DNA from: an uncultured delta proteobacterium
Lineage (GTDB): Bacteria; Myxococcota; Myxococcia; Myxococcales; Myxococcaceae
Length of the DNA stretch: 64,000 nucleotides
Assembly: GCA_963731795.1 (NCBI GenBank)
Contig: CAVSWU010000003.1
Span: 902,216 to 966,215 of the forward strand
Direction of reading: 5' to 3'
Position 1 is the first letter of the stretch, and each line of letters begins with the position of its first letter. The notes beneath the pieces were generated by a model. The model had not been told where the DNA came from. It worked only from the letters and a program-made list of their open reading frames with translations, and made no database searches. The translations under genes were made by a program, and so were the position numbers. Shown in pieces: positions 912-38,562 of this stretch.

Positions 912-1778
912 ATGAGGTTCGTCGCGCTGCTGGCCGGGATGGTGTGGATGACGGGGTGCGCCACGGGTGCCGCGGGGGCTCCGCTGGGCGGCGAGCTGTC
1001 CTTCGAGAACCTGCGCTACCGGCCCGCCACTCCCGCAGCCATGCCTCGCCCCATTCCGAATGAGGCCGAGGAGTCCGAGCCCGCCGTCGCGGAGGCTCCG
1101 TCCCGTGCGGAGCCGCGCCCCGCCGTGGCAAAGCGGGAGACGCCCGCGAGCAGGTCCGCGCCCCGAGTATCGCGCGCCGAGCCGAAGAAGCGTGTGCAGC
1201 CCGTCTCCCATCCTGTCGTGTCCCGGGATGCTCGCGAGACTGGTGCTCACCACCGCCCGCGCGCTGGTCGGCCAGTCCCAGGTGAAGGTGGGAGGCCGCA
1301 CCTACCCGAGCGACTGCACCGGGCTCGTGGAGGCGGTCTATACGGAGGCCGGCCTCTCTCTGCGAGGCACTGCGAAGCCGGGAGACAACGGCGTCACCGC
1401 GCTCTACCGCTACGCCCTGAACCACGGCCGTGTGTACAACGGCGGCCGGCCGGTGGCGGGGGATCTCGTCTTCTTCCGCGAGACGTACGATCAGAACCGC
1501 GATGGCCGGCGCAATGACGGGCTCACCCACGTGGGCATCGTGGACGAGGTGGACCGGGACGGCACCGTCACCGTGATCCACCGCGTGAAGCGCGGCGTGG
1601 TGCGCTACCGGATGAACCTCGCGAAGCCGAGCGTGGGCAAGGATCCTGCCACCGGCAAGATCCTCAACGACACGCTGCGAGCCCCGGGCCAGGGCCACTC
1701 CTTCGCCCTCACCGGCCAGCTCTTCGCGGCGTACGCCACCGTGCTCCCCGGCTCCAAGCCGGTGGTCGTCGCGCAGCG

Positions 1779-27463: not shown

Positions 27464-29365
27464 ATGCCCAGCACCCGCCGCCTCTCTGCCCCACAGCGCC
27501 GAACCGCTCTCGAGCAGCTCGGCCGTGACCGCCTCATCACCCTCACCGACCACTTCGGCCTGGAAGTCGGCGACAAGCGCGTCGCCGAAAACCACGTGAG
27601 CGCCTTGCTCCGGGCCCGGAGCGTGGACTTCTCCGAGCTGCTGGGGCTCCTGACGCGCCAGGAGCTTCAGTCCATCTGCGACGCCCTGGGCCTGGACCGG
27701 GGTGGCCGCGAGAAGGAAGTCCTCGCGCAGAGGATTCTCGACCTTGGGGAGGAGAGCCAGGGGGAGCTGCCCCTGACCGAGGCTGCTCCAGAGGAGGCTC
27801 CTGCGGAGAAGCCCAAGGCAAGCCGCGCCAAGGCTCAGAAGAACGGTGGCGATCTCGGGTTCGAGGCCACGCTCTGGCAGGCGGCGGACAAGCTCCGGAA
27901 CAACATGGACGCGGCCGAGTACAAGCACGTCGTCCTCGGGCTCATCTTCCTGAAGTACATCAGCGATGCCTTCGAGGAGCGCCGCGCCCAGCTCCTGGCC
28001 GAGGTGGACCAGGGGGCGGACCCGGAGCACCCCGACGAGTACCGGGCCGAGAACATCTTCTGGGTCCCCAAGGAGGCCCGCTGGGAGCGGCTCCAGGCCC
28101 AGGCCAAACAGCCGAGCATCGGCAAGCTCATTGACGACGCCATGGTCGCCATCGAGCGGGACAACCCCAGCCTCAAGGGAGTGCTGCCCAAGGAGTACGC
28201 CCGGCCCGGCCTGGACAAGCAGCGCCTGGGGGAGCTGATCGATCTGATCGGCACCATCGGCCTGGGAGATAGGGAGAACCGCAGCAAGGACATCCTCGGG
28301 CGCGTCTACGAGTACTTCCTCTCGGAGTTCGCCAGCGCCGAGGGCAAGAAGGGCGGCCAGTTCTACACGCCCCGCTCGGTGGTGAAGCTCCTGGTGGAGA
28401 TGCTCGCCCCGTACCGGGGCCGGGTCTACGATCCCTGCTGCGGCTCCGGGGGCATGTTCATCCAGAGCGAGAAGTTCGTGGAGGCCCACGGCGGCAAGCT
28501 CGGAGACATCTCCGTGTTCGGGCAGGAGTCCAACCCGACGACGTGGAAGCTGGCGAAGATGAACCTCGCCATCCGGGGCATCGACGCGAACCTCGGGCCC
28601 GAGAACGCGGACAGCTTCCACCGGGATCTGCACAAGGATCTGAAGGCCGACTACATCCTCGCCAACCCGCCGTTTAACGACAGCGATTGGGGTGGAGATC
28701 GGCTCCGCGAGGATGTCCGGTGGAAGTTCGGCGCACCTCCGGTCGGGAACGCGAACTTCGCGTGGGTGCAGAACTTCATCCACCATCTGGCACCGACGGG
28801 GACAGCGGGCTTCGTGCTGGCCAACGGCAGCATGTCCTCAAACCAGAGCGGCGAAGGTGAGATCCGCCGGGCCATTATTGAGGCAGATCTCGTGGATTGC
28901 ATGGTGGCACTCCCTGGGCAACTCTTCTATTCGACGCAGATTCCCGTGTGCTTGTGGTTCCTGGCGCGCGACAAGAAGAACAATCGACACAGGGACCGAC
29001 GGGGCGAAACCCTGTTTATTGACGCGCGAAAACTGGGAAGGATGATCGACCGAACCCACAGGGACCTGATCGACGAAGATATCCAACGGGTCGCTGACAC
29101 TTATCACTCCTGGCGCGGGGACCGCGATGCGGGCAAGTACGAGGACATAACTGGCTTCTGCAAGGCGACTCGGCTCAGCGACATCGCCGTCCACGGTTTC
29201 GTACTGACGCCAGGGCGGTACGTAGGCACGCCTGAAGCTGATGACGAGAAGCCATTCGCGGCGCACTTCTTGAGCCTGCGTGCCACTCTTGAAGAGCAGT
29301 TCGCCGAGTCTGACCGGTTGCAGGCTCGGATTCGCAACTCGCTCGCTCGTGTGAGGGGCGAGTAA
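27464..29365 (+). CDS. hsdM: Type I restriction-modification system methyltransferase subunit
   Basis: It has the N6-adenine methyltransferase motifs [10 protein letters not shown] (motif I) and NPPFN (motif IV), plus an N-terminal HsdM-N-like region. Confidence 0.9.
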
Positions 29366-30651
29366 TGAAGATCGAATGGCCCATCCTATCGCTAGCTGAG
29401 GCGGGGGTGACATTGCTGGATTGTGACCACCGCACTCCGCCTGCTGCCCCTGAGGGATACCCCTACGTCACAATCCCACAGATCAAGGACGGTCGTCTCG
29501 ACCTGTCTGACGTTCGGCGAATTGCTGAAGAGCATTTCCTCGATTGGACAAAGAAAACGCGCCCCATGGCAAACGATGTGGTCGTGGTGCGCCGGTGTAG
29601 CCCTGGGGATAGTGCTCATGTTCCGCCAGGGCTTGAGTTTGCTCTCGGTCAGAATCTTGTGCTTCTGCGCGCAGATGGGACCAGGGTTGCACCTGTATTC
29701 CTGCGATGGTTGGTGAGAAGTCCCTCTTGGTGGGAACAAGTCCAACGCTTCCTGAACGTCGGCGCAGTCTTTGACAGTCTGAAGTGTCGCGAGATTCCCA
29801 ACTTTCGATTGCCGGTCCCTCCCATCGACCAGCAACTTCTTATTGCAGAGGTGCTTGGAAGCCTAGATGAAAAAATCGCTTTGACGCGTCGCATGAACCA
29901 GACACTAGAAGATATGGCCCAGACATTGTTCCGGTCCTGGTTCGTGAACTTCGACCCAGTCCGGGCCAAGGCCAAGGGGCGGCGGCCTGAAGGTATGGAT
30001 GGGGCGATGGCGGCGCTTTTTCCTAACAGGCTCGTCGAATCAGAACTGGGTAACATTCCGGAGGGTTGGGCCAACTCCAGCATCTACGATGTAGCAAGCG
30101 CTGCATATGGAACCCCGTTCGCGTCGAGGCTCTTCAATTCGCAAGGAGATGGACTGCCGCTCATCCGCATCCGCGATCTCTCGACGCATGCTCCAACGAC
30201 CTTCACGCGCGAAGTGCTGGATCGTCAAATTGTCGTTGACCCAGGCGACATCGTGGTGGGCATGGACGGCGAGTTTCGTGTTCATCACTGGCGAGGTCCT
30301 CGCTCGCTAATGAACCAGCGCGTGTGCAAGTTCGTCCCCGCTCCGGGCGTGTCCAGAGTCTTCGTGGCCCAGTCCCTTATCGGGCCAATGCGGTTCTTCG
30401 AGAATACAAAAGCAGGAACGACAGTCATCCACCTCGGGAAGGCAGACATTGACACCATCAAGATCGTGAAGCCGCCCATGAGCATCCAGCAGGTGTTCGG
30501 CAATCTCGCGGAGCCTTTGCTTGAGAGAGTTCTCCTGAACGAGGCGGAAGCGCGGACATTGGCCGACCTACGTGACACTCTCCTCCCGAGGCTGTTATCC
30601 GGGGACATCCGCGTCGGTGAGGCTGAGGCCAAACTGGCGGCGAGCGTCTGA
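29365..30651 (+). CDS. hsdS: Type I restriction-modification specificity subunit
   Basis: Two target-recognition-domain halves with conserved spacer helices. A TAATG overlap joins it to hsdM. GC is ~50-55%. Confidence 0.85.
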   Translation: MKIEWPILSLAEAGVTLLDCDHRTPPAAPEGYPYVTIPQIKDGRLDLSDVRRIAEEHFLDWTKKTRPMANDVVVVRRCSPGDSAHVPPGLEFALGQNLVLLRADGTRVAPVFLRWLVRSPSWWEQVQRFLNVGAVFDSLKCREIPNFRLPVPPIDQQLLIAEVLGSLDEKIALTRRMNQTLEDMAQTLFRSWFVNFDPVRAKAKGRRPEGMDGAMAALFPNRLVESELGNIPEGWANSSIYDVASAAYGTPFASRLFNSQGDGLPLIRIRDLSTHAPTTFTREVLDRQIVVDPGDIVVGMDGEFRVHHWRGPRSLMNQRVCKFVPAPGVSRVFVAQSLIGPMRFFENTKAGTTVIHLGKADIDTIKIVKPPMSIQQVFGNLAEPLLERVLLNEAEARTLADLRDTLLPRLLSGDIRVGEAEAKLAASV

Positions 30652-30729
30652 TCGAGAGCCCGAACCTCACCGAGCCCTTTGACGCGGATGCGGGCGGGCC
30701 ACGATCAGCGCCGCTGATTCGGTGGACGA

Positions 30730-30790
30730 TGGGCGAGACGGACAGCAGCGGCTGCACTTCATGTCTGGACGTCCAGACATGAGAGTGGGA
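30730..30790. repeat. Palindromic repeat element, copy 1
   Basis: GGCTGCACTTCATGTCTGGACGTCCAGACATGAGA; the perfect 22-bp palindrome CATGTCTGGACGTCCAGACATG lies at 30760-30781. Confidence 0.85.
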
Positions 30791-31041
30791 GCGCCCCCCC
30801 CGGCAGCTCCTCCTCTCCCTCTCCTTCGAACGATCTGTAGAGGTGCGGCGCGAATCCCCAGGGGTCCGCTGCGACCGCCTTTGGCAAGCCGCACCCAGCA
30901 CGTTGGGCAAACAGAGAGAGCGCGGTGGGAGGCGAGAGGCCCACGCGGCATCACCCGGCAGGGCGTGGTGTTCCCTCCAGCAGCGGGTTCTACTGCTGCC
31001 TGACTCCGCTCCTGTCCGGGTAAGCGGAGGGGGGAGGACAC

Positions 31042-32661
31042 ATGCGTGCGGACCGCTTCCACCTGCTCCACTGCCGCAGCGCTCGGCATTGGGTTGTGCT
31101 CGTGCTCTGGGGATTGCTGGCAGGCTGCGCCAGCGGCAGAGCGGGGCCTCCCCTGGGCGGGGTGAGGGACTTCGAGGCGCTGCGCTACCGGCCTGCCACC
31201 CCGGAGCCCATGCCTGACACGGCGGCGGCGCGCAAGAGGGCGCAGTCGCAGCCCCAACCAGCCCTCGCGGGCAGTGGTAGCCCTGCGGGGATGGTGGCGC
31301 GCTCGGTGCTGGGCGGTGTCCAGCAACTGGACACCTTCGAGCAGGTACTGGTGCTGGCCGGGCTGGACAACCCCGAGGCACTCCCCTCGCCCGAGGCGCC
31401 CCTCCCCCCCGAGGACGCGGCGGCGCTGTATGACGAGCTGCTGGACAAGCCCGTCCCCCTGGCCCGCTTCGGTCCTCGGCTGGTGGCCACCTACCTGTTG
31501 CGCGAAGCCATGGAGGGGGATGAGGAGCTGCCCCGGGCGGTTCTGCTCCAGCGCGTGCAGCGCTTCAAGGGGCTGGCGGTGCTGCGGCCCGACGGCTACC
31601 TGGCGTGGGCGCTCACCGGACAGACGCAGCAGCACGTGGCCGAGGTGGAGTGGAAGGACGGCGCCTTCCGGGCTCATGACTTCGAGGTGGGGCACTTCTA
31701 CTCGGGCCGCAACGCCATGGCCTTCTTCGCGGTGGATGAGCAACTGCGGGACAGGAAAGAGTCCGGCGTGCTGGCCGAGGTGTACGACGACGCGGATGTC
31801 ATCAGCCGCGTGCTGGACGGAGCCGAGGCTTCCTACGTCGAGTTGGCCCTCTCCATCGGCAAGCTGGTGAGCCACCCCCTCCAGAGCGCCGAGGACTTGA
31901 AGCACCTGCCCTCCGCCCTGGCCGCCCTCATTGAGAGCTCGCCCGAGTACCTGGAGCGCTTCCGGCTGATGACGCGCGGAGAGCAGATCCGTGCGCTGTC
32001 GAAGCTGGGCACCACGCTGCTGTCCACCTACGGAGCGGCGGGGGGCACCACGCGCACGGTGGCGGCGGTGGGCAGTGGGATGGAGTCCGTCTCCGTGCCC
32101 GCGCTGACGCTCACGGCGGAGGGGGCGCTGGTGGTGGAGCGAGTCATGGTGCCCGCAGGGCGCGTGGTGACGGCGCTCAGCGGCGGGCCTGGAGCGGCCA
32201 TCATCCTTCAGCGCGCTGGCGACGCGGCCAGCGGAGGACAGCCCACTGCTCCGGAGGGCCCCGGCGAGTGGGGCCCGGCCAACGAGTCCATGAGCAAGCG
32301 CTCGGCGCGCTACCAGGAGCAGATCACCGGCCACTCCGCCAGCGAGGCGTACTGGGTGGGCGGCAAGGACTTGAAGAGCGGCGGCGTGAAACTCGACGGC
32401 TTCAAGGACGGAACGCTGCTGGATGCCAAGGGCCCCGGCTACGCCAACAAGTTCAACGACAACCTCACGCCCAAGAAGTGGTTCGCGCCCTCGGGAGCCA
32501 AGCAGCTCATCAAGCAGGCCCAACGCCAGCTCAATGTGGCCAAGGGCGTTCCCATCCGCTGGCATGTGGCGGAGAAGAAGGCCGCGGACGCCATCCGGAA
32601 GCTCTTGGAGGATGCGCCGATCACGGGGATTGAAGTGGTCTACACTCCCGCGTTGCAATAA
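31042..32661 (+). CDS. Lipoprotein polymorphic toxin candidate with a C-terminal PD-(D/E)xK restriction-endonuclease-fold domain (Tox-REase-like)
   Basis: GGAGG RBS. Signal with LLAGC lipobox. The leader contains DFEALRYRPATPEPMP. The C-terminal ~130 aa reads GHSASEAYWVGGKDLKSGGVKLDGFKDGTLLDAKG...IRWHVAEKK, with a D...D-x-K motif. Two paralogous immunity-like genes follow. Confidence 0.7.
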   Translation: MRADRFHLLHCRSARHWVVLVLWGLLAGCASGRAGPPLGGVRDFEALRYRPATPEPMPDTAAARKRAQSQPQPALAGSGSPAGMVARSVLGGVQQLDTFEQVLVLAGLDNPEALPSPEAPLPPEDAAALYDELLDKPVPLARFGPRLVATYLLREAMEGDEELPRAVLLQRVQRFKGLAVLRPDGYLAWALTGQTQQHVAEVEWKDGAFRAHDFEVGHFYSGRNAMAFFAVDEQLRDRKESGVLAEVYDDADVISRVLDGAEASYVELALSIGKLVSHPLQSAEDLKHLPSALAALIESSPEYLERFRLMTRGEQIRALSKLGTTLLSTYGAAGGTTRTVAAVGSGMESVSVPALTLTAEGALVVERVMVPAGRVVTALSGGPGAAIILQRAGDAASGGQPTAPEGPGEWGPANESMSKRSARYQEQITGHSASEAYWVGGKDLKSGGVKLDGFKDGTLLDAKGPGYANKFNDNLTPKKWFAPSGAKQLIKQAQRQLNVAKGVPIRWHVAEKKAADAIRKLLEDAPITGIEVVYTPALQ

Positions 32662-32671
32662 GACAGGCCTT

Positions 32672-33403
32672 GTGAGCGAGACGTACTACATCGGTGGTTA
32701 CTGGGGCGCGCGGAGGGAGGATGCCGAGTCGTGCGCTCGGCGCATCGCCGCGTTGGTGCAGGCGCTGGCGCCTGTCGATCCGCTCTTTGTCAGCTGGTTC
32801 AAGACCGCGAAGTCCCTCAAGGAATCCCTCAAGCGTCCGCTGGAGTTCGAACTCGCCAGCCTCTCCAAGTACGTCCAGCGCAACATCATGCGTGACGACA
32901 GGCGCAAACCCATGGAAGACCTGGGCTTTACCGTCTGGTTGTGGAACGGGGACCGGGGGGGCAACGACGCCTGGTTGCAGATGAGCTGTGGCGTAGCTTC
33001 AGAGCGAGTGAGCAACAGCTGTGTTCTCAGAGCGCCCTTCGAGGGGCCTGGAGCGGAGCGGGTCCTGACCACCGCTTTCCAGGTTCAAGCGCTGCGGGCC
33101 ATCGTCACTGCTTGGGATCCGGACTGGGGAGTAGGCATGTCGCGTGATCATCGAGACATCATCGGTCCCAGGTGCCCACACGTGCTGGTAGGCTGGGTGA
33201 CATACCTCTCGCGCCGCTTGGGCCGTGTACCCCCGCTGCCCGCGCCCGTGCGCATTGAGCCCTTGGAGGACAAAGGCACGCTCGTCATCCTCACCCCCGA
33301 GCGCTTCACCGCCTCCAACCCCGAGCACGTCGCCCTGGCCGAGCGCGTCCGCGAGCTGCTCGACCGCGCCGGGCTGCTCGGCAAGCCGCGTCCTGAGAAG
33401 TAG
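32672..33403 (+). CDS. Immunity-like protein 1 (a paralog of the 33575 gene)
   Basis: GTG start 10 nt after the toxin stop. (M)SETYYIGGYWGAR...WDPDWGVGMSR. It is ~80% identical to the next ORF. Confidence 0.65.
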   Translation: MSETYYIGGYWGARREDAESCARRIAALVQALAPVDPLFVSWFKTAKSLKESLKRPLEFELASLSKYVQRNIMRDDRRKPMEDLGFTVWLWNGDRGGNDAWLQMSCGVASERVSNSCVLRAPFEGPGAERVLTTAFQVQALRAIVTAWDPDWGVGMSRDHRDIIGPRCPHVLVGWVTYLSRRLGRVPPLPAPVRIEPLEDKGTLVILTPERFTASNPEHVALAERVRELLDRAGLLGKPRPEK

Positions 33404-33424
33404 GTTCAGGGCCTGCAATGGACG

Positions 33425-33486
33425 GTGGCAGAGACAGGCAGCGACGGCTGCACTTCATGTCTGGACGTCCAGACATGAGAGTTGGA
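33425..33486. repeat. Palindromic repeat element, copy 2
   Basis: The same element as copy 1; the 22-bp palindrome lies at 33456-33477. Confidence 0.85.
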
Positions 33487-33574
33487 GCGTGCTATCTGGC
33501 AGTTCCTCCCCTCCCAGGTAGCAGCGCGTTATCCTCGCTCCTCGGCACGCCCGCGCTGCAATGAGACAGGCCCC

Positions 33575-34306: not shown

Positions 34307-34324
34307 GTTCAGCGCCTGCGGTGG

Positions 34325-34390
34325 GCGGCGGGAGAGCCAGGCCGCGGCGGCTGCACTTCATGTCTGGACGTCCAGACATGAGAATCAGAG
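34325..34390. repeat. Palindromic repeat element, copy 3
   Basis: The same element; the 22-bp palindrome lies at 34359-34380. Confidence 0.85.
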
Positions 34391-34437
34391 CACGCCACCT
34401 CAGCCTCCCGCCGCCCCTTCTCGTGAGCCGCGCCTGC

Positions 34438-35163
34438 TCAGCGCGCGGCCGGCGGGACCGCATCCATCAGCGCCTCGATCACCTTGTCGACCTCCGCCAG
34501 AGGAAAGTCCCGCAAGGTCCCGAGGATGGTGCCCTTCTGGTTGCGAGCGGTGAGCTGGATGCGGCTGCTCTTGTCGGTGAACTTGCGCGCCAGCGAGTCA
34601 CGGTAGCGCTTGATCCGCTCCGCATCCTCCTTGGGAATGGGCATGTTGGAGGTGGGCCGGCGCAGGCGCTGCAGGGCCTTGCGCAGCTCCACCACGCTGC
34701 AGTTGGCGAAGGACTTCTCCTGGGTCGCGCCGTCCTTGTCGACCACGGTGATGGGGAAGAGGCCCGGGTCGTTCCTGTCGGCCTTCTTGCCGGTGGCCTC
34801 TTCGTAGGTGAGCAGCAGGCCCAGGCGCGAGATGCCGTACTGCACGCACACCTCCTGGCTGAACTCGCGGGCCACGGCGCCGTACGCGGCCAGGGTGGCC
34901 CGCGACAACTCCTTCAGTTCTTTGGCGAAGAAGTCGGGCGCATCCTTGTAGCCCGCATCCTCCGCCAGATTGTGGGTGACGACGTAGTTGTAGATGAGAC
35001 CAATCTGGTAGAAGTTGATCTCGCTCTGCCCCAGGATCTGGCGAATGGTGGAGGGGACTTCTTCGATCGTCATCCCCTCAAGCGAGCCGTTGAGGCGGGG
35101 ATTGAGAATGGCCTGGGTGAGGTTCGACATCGGATCTTGAGCTGCGACAACAGGCTTTTGCAT
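34438..35163 (-). CDS. Hypothetical protein embedded in the Type I R-M locus
   Basis: 241-aa ORF with real coding statistics and ~60% GC. It has no recognisable motif. It is divergent from hsdR. Confidence 0.55.
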   Translation of the reverse strand: MQKPVVAAQDPMSNLTQAILNPRLNGSLEGMTIEEVPSTIRQILGQSEINFYQIGLIYNYVVTHNLAEDAGYKDAPDFFAKELKELSRATLAAYGAVAREFSQEVCVQYGISRLGLLLTYEEATGKKADRNDPGLFPITVVDKDGATQEKSFANCSVVELRKALQRLRRPTSNMPIPKEDAERIKRYRDSLARKFTDKSSRIQLTARNQKGTILGTLRDFPLAEVDKVIEALMDAVPPAAR

Positions 35164-35319
35164 GTGAGACGTTCCTTGGTTGGAGCTGCGTGATTGCTGC
35201 GCTCCCTCCTAAAGCAGGGCCCGTGCCAACACAGAGGCCAGTGAAATGGCCCCCTTACGCGAAGGGGCTCCCCTCCCCCCATCTCACTTCGTGGACTGGA
35301 CAGTCTCATTCGGTGGACT

Positions 35320-38562
<3,243 letters not shown>

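Follow-up and report, generated by a model that had tools for sequence, protein, structure and literature searches.

The closest described relatives of the locus reported here belong to the SitA3 family of myxobacterial lipoprotein toxins. The founding member of the family, the lipoprotein SitA3-Mx of Myxococcus xanthus DK1622 (MXAN_1899), carries the homologous escort domain, a family-specific region of ~375 aa, and a polymorphic C-terminal toxin of the PD-(D/E)xK superfamily and is followed by an immunity gene; sitB lies upstream and the cassette is located on the Mx-alpha prophage-like element. SitA3-Mf1 of Myxococcus fulvus HW-1 (LILAB_02580), with its immunity protein SitI3-Mf1, was found experimentally to be traA-dependent and modular. 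The sitAI3-Mf1 cassette lacks sitB and lets its carrier win against the parent strain only when traA is present, its toxin domain is PF15648, and the escort and toxin domains of SitA3 and SitA5 were functional when swapped. Members of the SitA3 family are expected only in myxobacteria that carry traAB, with a delivery that depends on TraA and TraB. The Tox-REase-5 toxins TseT of Pseudomonas aeruginosa (TseT-TsiT, PA3907-PA3908) and TseTBg of Burkholderia gladioli are, in contrast, delivered by type VI secretion (T6SS) and have neither a lipobox nor an escort domain.

A stretch of 64,000 nucleotides, referred to here as the window, was analysed from contig CAVSWU010000003.1 (positions 902,216 to 966,215; assembly GCA_963731795.1) of an uncultured delta proteobacterium placed in Myxococcaceae. 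A preliminary description of the gene at 31042-32661 had guessed that it encodes a SitA-like toxin, and this guess was right: the SitA-like locus in the window is real and far beyond chance (593 homologues in the first search), and it could be narrowed by BLASTP to the SitA3 family of Tox-REase-5/Imm52 type. We estimate at about 85% the probability that this is a SitA3-family sitAI locus of a Hyalangium-like myxobacterium, encoding a nuclease toxin delivered by outer-membrane exchange together with Imm52 immunity. What was obtained in this analysis is the domain architecture and fold, the homology to the family, the conservation of catalytic residues, the linkage of toxin and immunity and the polymorphism of the family. 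The cassette has the following features, where ORF stands for open reading frame, GC3 for the GC content of third codon positions and pLDDT for the predicted local distance difference test score.

31042..32661, + strand: sitA3-family gene (lipoprotein toxin, 539 aa), from the ORF, GC3, homologues and BLASTP to SitA3 proteins
31042..31128, + strand: type II signal peptide, aa 1-29, from direct reading of the sequence
31129..31311, + strand: disordered variable tether, aa ~30-90, pLDDT 35-49 in the full-length model
31312..32217, + strand: SitA3 escort domain, aa ~91-392, with the junction motif GGPGAAIILQRA at its end, from homology to SitA3 proteins
32305..32574, + strand: Tox-REase-5 (PD-(D/E)xK) nuclease toxin domain, Pfam match PF15648 at aa 422-511, folded unit aa ~403-539
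32672..33403, + strand: sitI, Imm52 gene 1 (Imm52_1), 243 aa, Pfam PF15579, 271 bits
33575..34306, + strand: Imm52 gene 2 (Imm52_2), 243 aa, Pfam, 262 bits

The family assignment was based on the eLife 2017 supplementary alignment and on mBio 2021 primers. Three SitA3 reference sequences were rebuilt from the alignment in supplementary file 3 of PMC5562445 and compared with the window protein by BLASTP. MXAN_1899 aligned over the escort domain only (48% identity, window aa 78-426, E 7e-103), whereas LILAB_02580 (55% identity, aa 89-538, E 4e-156) and Q664_23910 (60% identity, aa 80-538, E 9e-180), both listed among the SitA3 homologues in PMC5562445, aligned over the escort and toxin domains. 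The primers for SitA3-Mf1 in Table S1 of PMC8546572 encode the protein start MRAGHW, the escort-domain end AAIILQRA and the toxin start GTAAKD, and all three strings agree with the alignment row of LILAB_02580. The window protein shares with SitA3-Mf1 the lipobox, the escort domain, the Tox-REase-5 domain (65% identical) and the junction GGPGAAIILQRA, which lies at aa 381-392 and is identical in the two proteins; neither gene is preceded by sitB, and each is followed directly by an immunity gene. The two differ in that identity falls to 48% in the escort domain (55% overall), and in that two immunity genes are present at the window locus, which is set inside a type I restriction-modification (R-M) operon. 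The toxin of SitA3-Mx is a CdiA-type tRNase (PF18451) unrelated in sequence to that of the window (26% in a forced alignment). The homology to SitA3-Mf1, the shared junction and the published SitA3-Mf1 data together make the window gene a new allele within a toxin type that has already been characterised. The named ones among its 593 full-length homologues are all from Myxococcaceae/Archangiaceae (Hyalangium, Archangium, Cystobacter, Corallococcus, Pyxidicoccus, Myxococcus and Vitiosangium), and the nearest named genome in a representative-genome scan was a Hyalangium sp. metagenome-assembled genome (MAG) at 84-85%.

The gene starts with an ATG that GGAGG motifs precede by 4 and 11 nt, and its GC3 of 0.88 is as in other real genes of the 64-kb window (~69% GC). 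The lipobox that had been proposed from the first inspection is present: the N-terminus reads MRADRFHLLHCRSARH-WVVLVLWGLL-AGC, in which an Arg-rich positive n-region and a hydrophobic h-region precede the lipobox L26-A27-G28-C29 with Cys29 as the predicted acylation site. The LLAGC string is common to the paralogues P0002 and P0003 and to P0004. Outer-membrane sorting of lipoproteins follows the rule of no Lys at +2 and no Ala at +7 (PMC5562445), and because these positions are Ala and Gly in the window protein, sorting to the outer membrane is predicted. The region after the signal peptide had been taken for a long low-complexity linker, and this did not hold, since only aa ~30-90 are disordered (pLDDT <50) and aa ~91-392 form the conserved escort domain. 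The tether is 62-80% identical among close alleles as compared with 90-95% for the escort domain, and the N-terminal ~100 residues of SitA3 proteins are known to be variable (PMC5562445, supp. 3). The model of the escort domain had pLDDT >90 at aa 91-250 and lower confidence at aa ~250-376, and no solved structural relative of this domain was found. A weak tblastn match between SitA aa 19-89 and window positions 921-1169 was out of frame with the CHAP/NlpC-P60 ORF at 967-1782 and was judged compositional.

The match of the C-terminus to Tox-REase-5 (PF15648) scored 58.8 bits, where the cutoff is 25, and covered 93 of the 95 profile positions, which bears out the restriction endonuclease fold suggested earlier from a D...D-x-K string. 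This string lies in GGVKLDGFKDGTLLDAKG at aa 447-464; in an alignment of 34 sequences D452 is invariant and K463 is conserved in at least 90%, position 461 is D or E, and Q496 and E511 are invariant. D452, D461 and K463 are the putative catalytic residues. The toxin-domain model, built with 34 homologues, had a mean pLDDT of 94.2, and its Foldseek comparison with the PDB returned only two significant matches, 9oz0_B (E 1.7e-7) and 7dym_A, both of which are the P. aeruginosa Tox-REase-5 toxin in complex with its immunity protein. A PDB search with the toxin-domain sequence alone gave nothing meaningful, so the kinship with TseT is seen at the fold level only, and an NCBIfam search gave no match for the toxin, the immunity proteins or the neighbouring orf241. 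In TseTBg toxins, the DNase activity is lost upon mutation of the conserved D and K (PMC9990079). When the toxin domain alone was used as query, mostly short fragments were returned, which told nothing about other delivery architectures, and many truncated Tox-REase-5 fragments are present in myxobacterial genomes; the domain also recurs by itself in Rhizobium, Streptomyces and Actinomyces plasmids and in mycobacteriophages. Gene 35 of mycobacteriophages Sbash (NC_026589.1, 30417-30779; "hypothetical protein") and Che9c (NC_004683.1, 29541-29900; gp35) is 32-35% identical to aa 405-523 of the toxin domain.

An alternative is that the toxin reaches its target by a path different from outer-membrane exchange, such as T6SS delivery or some other form of effector secretion. 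The Tox-REase-5/Imm52 combination is that of the TseT-TsiT T6SS pair, PA3907 and PA3908 are the top toxin and immunity matches, and the occurrence of the toxin domain alone in the plasmids and phages named above would also agree with other routes. However, no domain of the PAAR, VgrG, Rhs or Hcp type is present in the window SitA3 or its neighbours, a lipobox signal peptide followed by the SitA3 escort domain makes up the N-terminal part, and the orthologue with the same architecture is experimentally traA-dependent. We therefore regard a different delivery route as highly improbable.

Both of the downstream genes described earlier as immunity-like, at 32672 and 33575, encode Imm52 proteins, and both are full length (230 of 233 positions of the PF15579 profile). 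Imm52_1 begins with GTG 8 nt past the sitA stop codon, and its lack of a signal peptide agrees with an antidote that stays in the cytoplasm and is not handed on to other cells. Its sequence matched the TsiT chains 7dym_B and 6jdp_A, and it is likely the cognate immunity protein of the window toxin. Imm52_2 is 80% identical to Imm52_1 (194 of 243 residues, BLASTP). The immunity gene lies in a 903-bp tandem repeat, the copies of which are 79% identical at the nucleotide level in their 5' halves and 93% in their 3' halves. Imm52_2 is closer to the immunity protein of a Hyalangium MAG locus (L002; 85% identity) than to Imm52_1 (79%), and the window toxin domain is itself an outlier among close alleles; these two observations suggest that Imm52_1 may have diverged together with the window toxin. 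The diverged Imm52_2 would most likely broaden protection to sibling alleles, since the genome holds two paralogues that are 89-90% identical. The second immunity protein of TseTBg is a helix-turn-helix repressor, whereas that of the window locus is another Imm52. Surplus immunity genes behind myxobacterial toxins are a recognised and unexplained pattern (PMC12077181). By comparison, all 7 related sitA-Imm52 loci have a single Imm52 gene 10-50 nt after the sitA homologue. Upstream of sitA in L002 (5576-5653), 26 aa of the N-terminus of an Imm52 protein were found as a remnant, which points to sitAI units having been rearranged or arrayed earlier at that locus as well.

A phmmer search with just the escort domain (aa 90-396) gave only 225 matches among 1.84 billion cluster representatives. 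Among the 69 representatives having the escort domain and a C-terminal tail, 16 Pfam families were matched, mostly C-terminal toxin domains; 18 carried Tox-REase-5, and the other tips included CdiA_C, Colicin-DNase, WHH, HNH variants, Ntox47, Tox-HNH-HHH, GH-E, HicA-like, Tse2 ADP-ribosyltransferase and Ntox28. The escort-domain family is thus modular and polymorphic, in the pattern described for SitA3. On a finer scale, five close alleles were compared, namely the window allele, two paralogues on the same contig and two alleles from the Hyalangium MAG. Their escort domains are 89-95% and their toxin domains 82-90% identical, the toxin-domain differences are concentrated near aa 470-500 and 530-534, and the window toxin domain is the outlier of the five. 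The two paralogues, P0002 and P0003, are further SitA3/Tox-REase-5 proteins of the 4,253,742-bp contig, 89-90% identical to the window protein, and their differences sit mainly in the signal peptide/tether region and in one patch of the toxin domain. Apart from these close alleles, four distant escort-domain homologues (P0288, P0292, P0298 and P0338; 630-770 aa) have an N-terminal extension of 230-360 aa before the domain and no lipobox within their initial 150 aa, the part that was scanned. A match to eCIS_core (PF13699) was obtained for four of the 69 escort-domain proteins. The escort domain may also be employed outside lipoprotein SitA toxins.

The cassette splits a type I R-M locus, with hsdM-hsdS on one side and hsdR on the other, in the following arrangement.

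27464-29365: hsdM, intact
29365-30651: hsdS, intact
30723..30819: 97-nt repeat copy 1, upstream of sitA, palindrome at 30759-30782
33419..33515: 97-nt repeat copy 2, separating the Imm52 genes, palindrome at 33455-33478
34322..34418: 97-nt repeat copy 3, past Imm52 gene 2, palindrome at 34358-34381
34438-35163, - strand: orf241, conserved hypothetical protein of 241 aa, convergent with Imm52 gene 2
35320-38400, + strand: hsdR, broken, from a reading-frame scan

The hsdR frame contains at least 5 frameshifts past ~36930 (frames 1>2>0>2>0>1), which reflect either a decaying restriction subunit beside a surviving methyltransferase or local assembly indels. The 4.6-kb insert, which lies between the stop codon of hsdS and the start codon of hsdR and contains sitA, both Imm52 genes and orf241, is flanked by a 30-nt imperfect direct repeat (26/30; 30714-30743 and 35305-35334), the second copy of which overlaps the hsdR start codon. 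The GC content of the island (0.58-0.67) is below that of its surroundings; no integrase or transposase was found nearby, and the flanking genes are of housekeeping type. The protein encoded by orf241 has no Pfam, NCBIfam or PHROG family, and its 28 homologues, the few named of which are from Hyalangium, show 43-45% identity and occur in unrelated chromosomal contexts; on these grounds it was set aside as a part of the sitAI system.

This setting, in which hsdM and hsdS directly before the cassette are intact and the hsdR directly after it is decayed, could be read as a defence or addiction module in which cassette and R-M locus together stabilise the island or abort phage infection, with the REase-fold protein as a surrogate nuclease and HsdM/HsdS methylation or Imm52 as the antidote. 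We hold this reading to be very improbable. A precedent is TseTBg, also a Tox-REase-5 toxin, which is blocked by the methylation of an adjacent methylase (PMC9990079). On the other side, the 7 related sitA-Imm52 loci contain no hsd genes, no sitB and no copy of the palindrome TCATGTCTGGACGTCCAGACATGA, and the hsd linkage is accordingly local to the window genome; furthermore, the lipoprotein signal peptide would export the nuclease from the cytoplasm of the producer, which misfits an intracellular role in restriction or abortive infection. A related idea, to which we give only a small probability, is that the placement is not accidental and that the Tox-REase-5 toxin and the surviving HsdM/HsdS might form a composite self-identity module, with TCATGTCTGGACGTCCAGACATGA as a control or recombination site for amplifying or swapping immunity units. 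In that case, type I methylation of self-DNA would add a second, non-transferable protection, in the way that Dam methylation protects against TseTBg.

All three copies of the 97-nt repeat carry the perfect 24-nt palindrome TCATGTCTGGACGTCCAGACATGA without any difference, although the whole copies are only 72-84% identical to copy 1. The palindrome was found nowhere else in the window, and two metagenome scans gave no other instance. Lying between convergent genes, repeat copy 3 folds as RNA into a long hairpin of 47+47 nt (-62.8 kcal/mol, z -7.8), and the candidate roles of the palindrome are an operator, a recombination site or an RNA hairpin. The R-M setting, the duplication of immunity and the invariant palindrome are minor features of a gene that is otherwise an ordinary SitA3 allele of a well-studied kin-discrimination system.

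Several observations weigh against the assignment to a functional SitA3 locus. The accessory gene sitB is not present at the window locus, where hsdS stands upstream in its place; this gene is optional and its absence not disqualifying, as sitB is common in M. xanthus and lacking in most SitA3 homologues elsewhere, including the tested SitA3-Mf1. Neither traA nor traB was found among the ORFs surveyed in the 64-kb window, and the locus lies inside an R-M operon and not on an obvious mobile element. The catalytic motif is D-A-K where the majority of homologues have E-A-K, although D also occurs in several of them. Finally, no recognisable sigma-70 promoter was detected upstream of sitA. This last point, the decay of the adjoining hsdR and the many truncated Tox-REase-5 fragments in myxobacterial genomes would also agree with an inactive relic, the frame of which stays intact while expression or toxicity has been lost and which is kept only alongside useful immunity genes. 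The ORF is however full length with all domains present and the invariant catalytic and structural residues kept, GC3 is gene-like, both domains model with high confidence, and myxobacterial promoters are poorly predicted by a simple scan for sigma-70 sites. The relic explanation is thus improbable.

Under the preferred assignment to a SitA3 toxin delivered by outer-membrane exchange, lipidation, a transfer dependent on TraAB, entry into the cytoplasm, nuclease activity and neutralisation are carried over from the published work on SitA3-Mf1 and TseT/TseTBg. The protein would be exported by Sec, lipidated at Cys29 and sorted by Lol to the outer membrane, from which it would hang by its disordered tether of ~60 residues. 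Upon contact with a neighbour having a matching TraA/TraB receptor, the outer membranes would fuse and the lipoprotein would diffuse laterally into the recipient, where the escort domain (aa ~91-392) would carry the C-terminal Tox-REase-5 domain into the cytoplasm. The toxin domain would then cleave nucleic acid through its D452...D461-x-K463 active site, while the producer and its clonemates would be protected by cytoplasmic Imm52 (SitI) binding the toxin, as TsiT binds TseT. The general plan is shared with CdiA-CT/Rhs/colicin-type toxins, which also combine a conserved delivery/translocation region with an exchangeable nuclease at the C-terminus and a specific immunity gene beside it, and sometimes have extra immunity copies too, but these differ in their delivery machinery and have unrelated N-terminal regions.

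The locus is a further SitA3/Tox-REase-5/Imm52 allele in the myxobacterial 'self-identity barcode' repertoire, from a Hyalangium-like lineage. Since 25-80 sitAI loci have been reported per myxobacterial genome, one added allele is of modest value. It is mildly useful for the evolution of such cassettes, in that an outlier toxin domain is paired with an equally divergent Imm52_1 and the insertion is into a type I R-M operon with a decaying hsdR. As no structure has been solved for any relative of the escort domain, any SitA3 allele with a good model would be a sensible point of departure for structural work on cell entry. The diverged tandem pair of immunity genes offers a natural case of immunity expansion, and the reason for the extra immunity genes behind myxobacterial toxins is a question already raised (PMC12077181).
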